Shown piece after piece: positions 1 through 3,000 of a stretch of DNA of 12,782 nucleotides. Made by a program: the position numbers. Location: IMG/VR virus record IMGVR_UViG_2713896781_000014. One strand, written 5' to 3'. The first letter of the stretch is position 1. Each line of letters begins with the position of its first letter. The DNA is from a virus. Taxonomy: Duplodnaviria > Heunggongvirae > Uroviricota > Caudoviricetes.

Positions 1-3000
1 TCGTCCGGAATGGCGGCGCAAATAAAGACTTTACTCATTTTGTTTTAACCTCATTACAGATTTCAGGGTGAACGAATCCCTGCCATTGCTGGCATTTTTA
101 ATCCGTTGGTATGGCGTTAATATGGCTGGCGGGTTATCCAGCCGGTATTTCGTTATTCAGGTTCAGCGATACTTTTTTTAACGGGAGGCATTCACCGGGG
201 ATTTTTTGTTCGTCCCTTACCTGAATGCAGGATGACTTACTGTCATAAATTCCGGTAATCACATTTTGTGGCTCACCCGTTATAAGAAAAACGGTCATCA
301 CCAGTGCAAATGCTGAAGTCACTGCTGTTCTCCGATAATACCAAGTTCAAGAAGGGCAATTCTGGAAAGTATGGAATTATCATTGAGAAGATAAGGTTCA
401 TATTTTCTCATCTTAATGGCATCTTCCGTAAACTCCCGGTTACTGAGCAGAACACCAATATCAAAACAACCTTCAGACGTATTAACGTTTNNNNNNNNNN
501 NNNNNNNNNNNNNNNNNNNNNNNNNNNNNNNNNNNNNNNNNNNNNTTGTCACTTAAGCGTATGGTCAACCTGACAACCCGGTGTCCTCAACGGGGAAGGA
601 ATAACCCCTCCATACTTACCGCCGCGCCATTTCGCGGATTGCCACAACCGGAAGCGCACGGTCGACGAAAATTTAACGACAGGCTATCTATGAACCAGCT
701 ACCTCGCCGTGCGCTTTCGCGTTATGGTCTGACTTTTCAGAGAAATATCCTTTCAGTAAACTGTCAGTGCCGGATGTTCACCCGTGTCCGGCGCACGCAC
801 TCCACTTCACCCGTGGAGAACTCCTTAATTACCAACCCTCAGGAGGGTGAATGTTAAAATCAACTCTTATTGCTAAATGCCTTTATCAAAATCGCATGGT
901 AAGCAGCATTTCAATAGGCGAGTCTGCAGTTAAAAGTATTTTCGAAGAGTACTTTCCCGGGCATGATTTTAATAAATGGAATACCAAATTACCGCCAGCA
1001 GTTTCAACGCGTATTCTGAAAGCAACCGAAAGAGCAAGTACAATTCGCGTTAACTATTTCATTAAAGATTTGTGGGATCTTTGATATCCACAGAGCCTAA
1101 AGTATGTGCATATGGATGTGCTATTATGCGCCCTCGCAGATTTGCATCATTTTCTAAATTCACTGAACGAAACAGGGCATCAACAAGGCTCTGTACAATG
1201 CAAAGGCAATCGAAGACTGTCGCCGTTTCTGTTTTGATTGATGAAAGAACATGGCCATTCACGCAAACAGAAATTACCCGTTTATTAACATCGCTTTCCT
1301 GCTTTTGATTATCAGAACCATATAGCCCAGAAAAAGCATTGCGCACATTACGAACCATATTATCGATGGTTTCTTTTTCTGCGGTACTAAGGTCAAGAGT
1401 AGCCAGTTGTGAACGAACTATATTCGATGCCATTTCCTGTAATGGCGTTGGTAAATCTTTAAATTCCATTATTAGCCTCGTTGGTTAGCTATTAACGTGG
1501 GTATGTAATCATTCTGGCAATGCTTAATGCCGCTGCTTTTTCCAGATTGGTGATATCCTGCTCCAGAGCGGACAGATTTTCAGCCTGCTTAGCCCTGGCT
1601 TCATTGGCCCATTTCAGGTCCTGCACCGCCTTAATTTTCTGGTGCATCCACTCATAAAGTTCATCATCGGTATAGTCTGGCGCGATGATGACGGGGTCTC
1701 GTTTCTGCATGTCGGCTCCTTGTGGTTAGCGTTGCCTGCTTTTTAACCACGTCAGGCGAGGTGGTATCCTCTGAGGGGTCTGTTACTCGAGAGGAAATTG
1801 GTTATGAATACAATCAAGTTTTCTTGCCCAGAATGTGGTGGCTAAGTCTTTGACACATCCTTTAAGCCGCAGGGCTCTGACAGTTTCGCGGGAGCCATCT
1901 GCAAAAATTGTGGTCACCTTGTAACTGAAGATGAGTCCTCGCAGTTCGATGACGAAATCGTTGACAATATCTTCGGTGCACTCACCAGAGACTTTCTGAA
2001 GTAAAGGCGCATACCGCTTAGTTACCGCTCTGATAACTCTTACCTGTCCGGCAATGGCGCTGATATCAATATAAAGCGCCATCGCTGTTTCTTTGCTGAT
2101 CCCTGGACGCCTTCCATTCTGATGTTTGACTTCGCCCACTGAGAAATCCTCTGCTTCCCCTTAACGCCGGGTAGCGGAACTGTTTGCTGAGAACACCGTG
2201 CGGTGTCTTGATGAGTAGAATTTAGAATAGCCTAAGAGTTATGGTTAAGCTTTTTGTGTAGAAAAACCTAAGCTTCTTGATGTAAAAAACACAAGTATTT
2301 GAAAGTTTGTGCTTTTTATTACAGAGAGTTGCGAAAAAAAGGGGGGTTATTTATTTGCGCTTCTTTTGCGAGCTTTGAGTAGTTCTTCAAAAAGTTTGTT
2401 GAAATTCTCAACTCGAGCACGCATCTCTGACAACAGAGCCTTTTGCTCTGACTCAGGCAGTGCGTCGAACAGTTGAAGCAACTCTTTTTGATCTTCTGTC
2501 AGATTGACTGGCTGATTATCTGGGATCGGTTCGCCTGGTTGCTTATCTTCATCTCCAAAAAGAAGCCAAGTCGGCGAGCACTGAAGCGCCTGGCTCAGTG
2601 CGAATAATCTCTTCCCCGCTGGCTGTGTTTCATCTCTTTCCCATTGAGAAATTGTTACGTGAGCCACTTTGACCAGCTTACCTAATGCGGCCTGAGACAG
2701 TTTTAATTTTTTTCGCCTGTATAAGAGGCGAGCACCGAAGGTTTCGTTTTTCATATTAGGTAATTCTAATTTTTCTTGACTTAGGTTTCTCTACGATCTA
2801 GTTTCCTTAGGAAAATCTAAGGGGTTCGATATGTTGAAAATTGATGCTATAGCGTTTTTTGGCAGCAAAACAAAGCTTGCCAATGTCGCAGGAGTTAGGC
2901 TGGCAAGCGTTGCTGCATGGGGGGAACTGGTTCCTGAAGGTCGCGCGATGCGCCTGCAAGAGGCATCCGGCGGGGAACTTCAGTACGACCCCAAAGTTTA

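Follow-up and report, generated by a model that had tools for sequence, protein, structure and literature searches.

The DNA analysed here, a stretch of 12,782 nt that we call the window (IMG/VR record IMGVR_UViG_2713896781_000014), comes from a PPompW-type lambdoid prophage of Shiga-toxin Escherichia coli, and our subject is a structured block at positions 652-818, upstream of an open reading frame (ORF) for a 77-amino-acid (aa) protein. Positions 546-1100 are 100% identical to the ompW-adjacent prophage in Shiga-toxin-producing E. coli (strain E2865 and O26, O145 and O103 strains) and to phage records named 'PPompW'. In the annotated record, integrase, excisionase, exonuclease, a DUF1482 gene and dicB lie on one side, and genes for the 77-aa hypothetical protein and a 135-aa hypothetical protein, ydfC, a helix-turn-helix repressor gene, and cro-like and ydaT-like genes on the other. 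The order along the minus strand of the window is that of a Qin/Rac-type dicBF early operon: a DicA-like repressor gene (2347-2754), ydfC (1492-1710), the 135-aa gene (1062-1469), DicF and dicB. Both DicF and DicB inhibit cell division and are toxic; they also influence metabolism, phage resistance and, in enterohaemorrhagic E. coli, virulence gene expression, and the processing and silencing of their operon are still being worked out.

A run of N (Table 1) hides the small RNA (sRNA) DicF, the spacer between DicF and dicB, and the start of dicB. Its boundaries were placed by coordinate comparison with an identical genome record, L001, in which window 490 corresponds to 5728 and window 546 to 6001. 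There, DicF occupies 5920-5971 on the minus strand, within the masked stretch (Rfam RF00039, 76.7 bits), and dicB follows downstream on the same strand at 5557-5745; an STnc100-like stretch between the two is sub-threshold (38.7 bits; gathering score 47). In operon sense, which is the minus strand of the window, the block lies about 135-300 nt upstream of DicF. The original prediction, which had been made from the window sequence, reported no match to DicF. This stands for the block itself, which is not DicF, but DicF does exist at the locus and was missed because the N run masks it.

That prediction also read the block as functional, structured non-coding sequence, not as random intergenic DNA, and on this we agree. 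It is not, however, a stand-alone element: it is the known spacer of the DicF precursor, together with what is probably a leader on the opposite strand. We hold this combined explanation, a DicF-precursor spacer plus an opposite-strand leader cassette, to be the best overall, with moderate confidence. The comparative set behind it consists of 14 diverse loci and 120 viral-contig loci sharing a 16-nt hairpin B anchor, and alignment A2 contains 78 distinct sequences that cover both the small hairpins and the long stem described below. RNAalifold, run on these relatives, recovers the long stem, and the hairpin stems are conserved. A species-level genome scan with a DicF pattern gave 8 loci and added little diversity.

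Table 1. Features in and around the block, in window positions.
Feature	Positions	Strand	Description
N run	491-545	-	55 N in place of 272 nt (L001 5729-6000)
Pre-DicF body	546-654	-	visible part of the ~137-nt segment from the RNase III cut to the DicF 5' end
RNase III stem, 3' arm (operon sense)	643-665	-	putative cut 655|654, CCGUGCG^CUU
Stem apical loop	666-703	-	variable in sequence and length, except conserved UGUCGUUAAAUUU
RNase III stem, 5' arm (operon sense)	704-726	-	pairs with 643-665
Hairpin C / palindrome	727-742		GTCTGACTTTTCAGAG; overlaps putative -35; may act as RNA (either strand) or as an operator-like DNA site
Putative weak sigma-70 promoter	734-762	+	TTTTCA (734-739)-17-TAAACT (757-762); predicted start ~G769
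Hairpin B	769-792	+	GCCGGA (769-774)/TCCGGC (787-792); 12-nt loop TGTTCACCCGTG with motif copy 1 (777-786)
Hairpin A	800-818	+	CTCCAC (800-805)/GTGGAG (813-818); 7-nt loop TTCACCC; motif copy 2 at 806-815
Translation-initiation cassette	821-853	+	anti-Shine-Dalgarno (anti-SD) CUCCU 821-825; Shine-Dalgarno (SD) AGGAG 841-845; ATG 851-853
77-aa ORF	851-1084	+	the slot's cargo in this prophage; WP_000920491.1; PHROG 10348, unknown function

The operon strand and the DicF precursor

Megablast found the 305-nt block in 4,314 of 5,426 complete E. coli genomes, with K-12 derivatives matching block positions 1-292 at 96.9%. Window 546-837 is thus about 97% identical to the K-12 spacer between ydfC and dicF, whose MG1655 counterpart is a 340-nt gap running from the end of ydfC (1649041) to dicF (1649382-1649434). 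In K-12, a 190-nt DicF species owes its 5' end to RNase III, and the 53-nt form is produced by RNase E; Ragunathan et al. 2023, who detected no additional promoter on the K-12 operon strand, confirm Faubladier et al. 1990 on DicF processing (PMC10448788). A 190-nt species ending at the DicF 3' end would begin at MG1655 1649245, which is L002 2246 and window 654, inside the 652-661 arm of the inverted repeat that the original prediction had singled out; the position was obtained by arithmetic from a gel-sized length, with an error of a few nucleotides. A supplementary figure of PMC10448788, in which the sequence starts inside the loop of this stem, is consistent with the placement. We rejected the 'positions 813/814' of the same paper as transcript coordinates, as these would put the cut between hairpins A and B and give a product of 333 nt, not 190; given that product and the start of the figure in the stem loop, the numbering must be that of the older published sequence.

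The inverted repeat is present as predicted and extends to 13 nt (649-661/707-719, 92% complementary), with the exact 10-mers 652-661 and 707-716 inside it. In the RNAalifold consensus it is the core of an interrupted stem of 19 pairs, which are 99.4% paired in the 78 sequences. Ten of the pairs vary, always on one side only, and on the minus strand every change gives G.U or U.G. Pairing in these columns drops to 93.0% when they are read on the plus strand, and the comparison of wobble with mismatch favours the operon strand (99 G.U against 4 A.C cells). The minus-strand stem at 636-733 folds at -37.4 kcal/mol (z-score -3.2), and none of 200 shuffles was as good. The apical loop exists in at least three unrelated versions in our alignments. 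Many prophages share with the window only the part from DicF to about position 737, and the stem plus DicF can therefore be regarded as one module.

The minus-strand transcript would thus carry the spacer from 546 to about 733 as the 5' part of the DicF precursor; RNase III would cut the stem of about 19 pairs near 655|654, freeing a 190-nt pre-DicF, which RNase E would then trim to the 53-nt DicF. We are highly confident in this assignment of the inverted repeat to RNase III processing of the DicF precursor. Cleavage itself is experimental in K-12, and at this prophage it is to be expected from the roughly 97% identity and the conserved pairing. The stem and the DicF-proximal part are in this sense already known biology, applied by close homology. 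With the inverted repeat explained by an established RNase III step, one false lead is gone, and the processing scaffold proves to vary hardly at all among thousands of E. coli prophages.

The visible part of the pre-DicF body contains small hairpins at 622-637 and at about 589-610, and relatives have compensatory changes in this region (CGGGG/CCCCG to CGAGG/CCUCG). Window 546-648 is conserved far outside the Qin-like prophages, at 76-93% identity: 93% in the Stx2c phages and phage cdtI, 83-85% in one Salmonella and one Actinobacillus phage, and 76-81% in P1, P7 and SJ46; the P1 annotation reads 'dicF-like region'. A decayed DicF duplication in the spacer, suspected by eye (GGUGA...CAGUUUACU), was rejected after a local alignment score of 14 against a shuffle mean of 14.4. 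The suggestion that the block might be an independent small RNA did not survive, as Rfam gave no match in the block, either with the whole window at gathering thresholds or with 546-860 at E <= 10, where the DicF covariance model (RF00039) was also without a match.

Variant DicF-like sRNAs occupy the same position in several groups of loci (L012/L094/L133, L017/L070/L136, L074, L092, L013/L014/L022 and L026). They stand before the same terminator tail (CCGCCCTTTTTAAAGTGAATTTTGTG) and behind the same RNase III stem, and differ in their 5' 'seed' regions and hairpin loops. In L013 and L014, which encode N and have kil downstream, about 110 nt are missing and the stem abuts the variant sRNA. In L026 the whole stem is gone, apparently by deletion between two CGCGAAA direct repeats, and the hairpins are still present, as is a variant of DicF; this prophage offers a natural test of processing independent of RNase III.

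Hairpins A and B and the proposed plus-strand cassette

The two small hairpins are as the original prediction described them, except that the 767-794 given there for hairpin B adds two flanking bases on each side, and the motif TTCACCCGTG does occur exactly twice, with a spacing of 29 nt. Folded as a plus strand, 546-850 has a z-score of -3.2 against shuffles, and the whole minus strand is less clear (-1.67). Hairpin B reaches -10.5 kcal/mol on the plus strand (z = -2.5) and -8.9 on the minus strand (z = -1.5), two wobble pairs being gained on the plus strand only; hairpin A has z of about -3.0 on either.

Relatives keep the stems and vary the loops. The hairpin B stem, which has a single copy in the window, is 99% paired in the 78 sequences, and its loop reads ..GGGTGAACA, ..GGGTGCGCA, ..GGGTGAGCA or ..GGATAAGAA, variants also given as CACGGGTGAACA, ..GCGCA, ..GAGCA or CACGGATAAGAA. 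Hairpin A likewise has a conserved stem and a variable loop in type 1 loci (GGGTGAA, GGGTGAG, GGGTCAG, TGGTCAG, GGATGAG and others), or else its place is taken by a different hairpin: in type 2 loci the unrelated ACC-A-ACACG N6 CGTGT-GGT again forms a hairpin at this position. The K-12 loops read CTCACCCGTG and CGCACCCGTG, and since these letters differ, the exact duplicate of TTCACCCGTG is a feature of this lineage. Six loci or locus types (L020, L032, L052, L036, L050 and L056) have the hairpins without an RNase III stem or DicF downstream. By this comparison of loci, hairpins A and B are a module separate from the stem.

Upstream of hairpin B lies a promoter-like site that matches the sigma-70 hexamers at 8 of 12 positions, and its predicted start coincides with the first base of the hairpin; sites of at least 8/12 have a background frequency of 2.9%. 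In nearly all DicF-linked loci the distance between the pair TTTTCA/TAAACT and hairpin B is constant. L039 retains both hexamers despite a replaced spacer, and the spacing stays at 16-18 despite indels. In the L020-type loci a better site, TTGAGA-17-GATAAT (10/12), ends 7 nt before hairpin B, and in L020 it is followed by a 75-aa ORF and then a terminator-like hairpin at 3527-3554.

Downstream of hairpin A, a plus-strand ORF begins at one of three conserved SD/ATG cassettes (...AACTCCTTAATTACCAACCCTCAGGAGGGTGAA(A)TG; ...GGTCTCCATT...CTCAATGGAGGATAAAATG; ...AAGGAGAGTGAATTTATG) in about 55 of 130 loci. The ORFs themselves, which we call cargo, encode at least ten unrelated proteins of 61-105 aa, and the junction to the differing ORFs falls exactly at the start codon. 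A PHROG scan of ten of them matched eight to families of unknown function and two to none; the matches are mostly to a cargo ORF's own family over the full length, with two cargo ORFs sharing one family, and one has a borderline Pfam match to GhoS. The ratio of nonsynonymous to synonymous substitution rates is 0.15-0.28 in the four cargo families with enough diversity, which marks these four as real genes. A scan with the type 2 SD cassette found hairpin B in 99 of 119 loci and no new hairpin B variants. Three unrelated viral contigs (L140, L142 and L143) share the 17-nt SD cassette, CAATGGAGGATAAAATG, but have it behind another structured leader, a terminator followed by a GGAAGGATG...CATCCTTCC hairpin, which may be chance or convergent design.

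The 3' end of the 77-aa ORF overlaps the convergent 135-aa gene by 23 nt. That gene, on the operon strand, has a full-length match to phrog_1363, and the first 60-70 or so residues of its product match further PHROGs (6937, 2151, 9419 and 33007), which suggests a protein with a conserved N-terminal part and a variable C-terminal part. Given this match pattern and the overlap, the variable zone of the mosaic seems to span both the plus-strand cargo and the tail of the 135-aa gene.

From these elements we propose the following model. The weak promoter would start plus-strand transcription at the first base of hairpin B, so that hairpins B and A would form the 5'-terminal structured leader of a plus-strand messenger RNA (mRNA). 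The ribosome-binding site and start codon are complementary to CUCCU and to the two UUCACCC loops, and because of this complementarity to three upstream elements, translation is probably throttled. Behind the cassette stands an exchangeable gene, here the 77-aa ORF. A 5'-terminal stem-loop is an established protection of E. coli mRNA from 5'-end-dependent decay.

Several observations fit such occlusion of the SD. The initiation region is paired in predicted folds, and the loop motif UUCACCC has its exact reverse complement in GGGUGAA at 845-851. In the window variant, the duplex of loop B with the initiation region has -13.2 kcal/mol and z = -3.8. Between types 1 and 2, loop B and the spacer from SD to ATG change together (UCACCC/GGGUGA against UUAUCC/GGAUAA), and own-type duplexes of the two average -8.3 kcal/mol, against -5.5 for cross-type ones. 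The anti-SD and SD likewise read CUCCU/AGGAG in type 1 and CUCCAU/AUGGAG in type 2, in 2-3 independent lineages. Taken together, the comparisons in this section lead us to favour, with some caution, the reading that the region from about 734 to 853 is a portable plus-strand expression cassette for a small moron-like gene. The original suggestion of a leader for the 77-aa gene is thereby upheld for the two small hairpins, which are fused to a ribosome-binding/ATG cassette with interchangeable genes and have a promoter-like site upstream; it does not apply to the long inverted repeat, which serves the opposite strand as the RNase III stem of the DicF precursor.

Hairpin C overlaps the putative promoter. 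Five sequences carry a double change from CCCUG/CAGGG to CUCUG/CAGAG, and the fold is weak (-3.9 kcal/mol). In relatives the palindrome reads CCCTGA-CTTT-TCAGGG, with a symmetric double change of C-G to U-A. The hairpin lies downstream of N in the N-encoding phages L013 and L014. We rejected it as a lambda-type nut boxB: no boxA (CGCTCTTA) lies nearby, and by inspection the loop geometry is wrong (CCCUG-AAAAGU-CAGGG).

Alternative readings and significance

Several points weigh against the combined explanation. On the operon strand, the exact cut site has an uncertainty of a few nucleotides, and the ends of the transcript at this prophage are carried over from K-12. On the plus strand, the promoter-like site of the window falls below the threshold of our promoter scan and was not called, and a scan of window 546-1500 gave no terminator-like site after the 77-aa ORF. 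The phage copies of that ORF that we found are all at least 98.7% identical, and without diverged homologues its coding status is by analogy. The complementarity of loop and initiation region is clearly better than in loop shuffles for the window's own variant only, and we therefore treat it as suggestive. The L012 and L028 types have a degraded hairpin A, and some of the lineages in which this is so, the L028 type for one, do possess a plus-strand ORF. Finally, the hairpins persist without any plus-strand ORF in about 70 of 130 loci (K-12 type and L012 type), so that the hairpins may also, or instead, serve the operon strand.

This last point leads to the most serious alternative, that hairpins A and B act on the minus strand, blocking 3'-5' exonucleases from a position near the new 3' end that the RNase III cut leaves on the upstream ydfC-side fragment and so stabilizing the promoter-proximal mRNA, their adjacency to plus-strand genes being incidental. 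The hairpins are fully conserved in the K-12-type loci that have no plus-strand ORF; they fold on the minus strand too; the wobble changes in the stem of hairpin B speak for that strand (6 G.U, 0 A.C); and the disappearance of ydfA-containing bands in K-12 without RNase III (PMC10448788) also fits. However, stems of 6 bp at -8 to -9 kcal/mol are weak exonuclease barriers, the L020-type loci have the module without an RNase III stem downstream, and neither the fixed-distance hexamers, the 10/12 promoter in DicF-less loci nor the fusion to an SD cassette with exchangeable real genes is explained. We consider this alternative unlikely as a replacement for the plus-strand leader, although the two roles could coexist. 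A further possibility is that the hairpins are a conserved 'linker' at a mosaic boundary, providing homology for recombination and having no function as RNA. Homology breakpoints between prophages do fall at or inside the block (at about 837, 815, 797 and 737), the cargo junction lies exactly at the start codon, and conservation is too high for much covariation to show. A linker of this kind would not account for substitutions that concentrate in the loops and leave the stems intact, for the different sequence of type 2 that is again a hairpin at the hairpin A position, or for promoter-like hexamers kept across a replaced spacer, and we find it improbable.

The original prediction had also proposed that the two copies of TTCACCCGTG are a pair of protein-binding sites, here considered on either DNA or RNA. 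In favour of this, the 10-nt direct repeat is exact and its copies, 29 nt apart, each lie in a hairpin loop, but the motif is not conserved: loops A and B vary across relatives, K-12 included, and being the most variable part of the hairpins they argue against protein sites. Nor is the duplication unusual in itself, as 34 of 200 window shuffles gave at least two matches to the motif with at most one mismatch. We give this proposal very little weight. Least credible of all is a decayed or short coding region, either the 103-aa plus-strand frame that is open at 546-857 or a minus-strand mini-ORF of 10-23 aa behind the SD-like TAAGGAG (824-830), whose in-frame ...VRRTR..IRH* end is common to type 1 and some type 2 sequences. 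The 103-aa frame has no PHROG match, and relatives have 1-nt and other non-triplet indels across it, in keeping with the initial statement that no convincing ORF is present. The mini-ORF is rejected because 1-nt indels shift its frame with the hairpins kept (loop B of L014; type 2 ACCAACACG and ACCACACG), one sequence has an in-frame TAG, and the start codon is inconsistent (TTA in K-12, TTG in others).

With the plus-strand leader as our preferred reading of hairpins A and B, the twin hairpins behave as a shared leader for many interchangeable small opposite-strand genes of unknown function. Our literature searches found nothing for this element on an antisense transcript, on a moron or hotspot at ydfC/dicB, or on PPompW; a shared promoter-leader-SD cassette with exchangeable cargo, antisense in dicBF-type operons, seems to be undescribed in the literature searched. 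More tentatively, and with rather less confidence than in the cassette itself, we suggest that prophages of the Qin/Rac type have here an antisense slot for at least ten rotating small proteins, which could double as an antisense brake on DicF and DicB. The plus-strand transcript would be complementary along its full length to operon RNA lying just upstream of the DicF precursor, and it could for that reason restrain leaky expression of DicF and DicB in lysogens; K-12-type prophages would then retain only the antisense RNA part. If the shared leader is confirmed, these prophages would contain a defined and easily searched accessory-gene hotspot, and a layer of antisense control over DicF and DicB would become a possibility.

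Comparison with known systems

The closest known counterpart is the spacer between ydfC and dicF in the Qin prophage of K-12, which has the same position upstream of DicF, the same strand and the same stem at the RNase III site. The window differs in having two extra genes between ydfC and the spacer, one on the operon strand (135 aa) and one on the opposite strand (77 aa), and in a plus-strand SD/ATG at the spacer edge that K-12 does not have; the loop letters also differ, and the exact repeat of TTCACCCGTG is absent from K-12. RNase III stems are known as the places where polycistronic phage transcripts are cut into functional units, as in the lambda N-leader, at sib and at the early mRNA sites of T7. 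As in those cases, the stem here would offer about two helical turns of interrupted double-stranded RNA in an early operon, but its product is an sRNA precursor, which RNase E has to cut once more.

On the plus strand, the ompA 5' untranslated region hairpin and the leaders of hok-type genes provide precedents, with a stem-loop predicted at +1 and upstream sequence complementary to the ribosome-binding site. In contrast to the type I toxin leaders (hok), the 77-aa product is hydrophilic and no antitoxin sRNA is evident, while it is the operon transcript itself that is fully antisense to this leader. We therefore rejected a hok/sok-like type I toxin-antitoxin system. A sok-type antitoxin RNA does occur elsewhere in the window, at 7633-7782 on the plus strand (Rfam sok, 103.9 bits), and two transfer RNA genes lie at 11013-11085 and 11179-11252, also on the plus strand; all three are unrelated to the block.

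Phage morons, recognized from lambdoid genome comparisons, are self-contained units of promoter, gene and terminator within prophage operons. Like them, the cassette has a small accessory gene opposite to the operon, a promoter-like site of its own and exchangeable cargo, and in the L020-type loci a terminator as well. It differs in the weakness of the window promoter (8/12), in that no terminator was seen in the window, and in its architecture: the promoter-leader-SD part is conserved and shared, and only the ORF changes.

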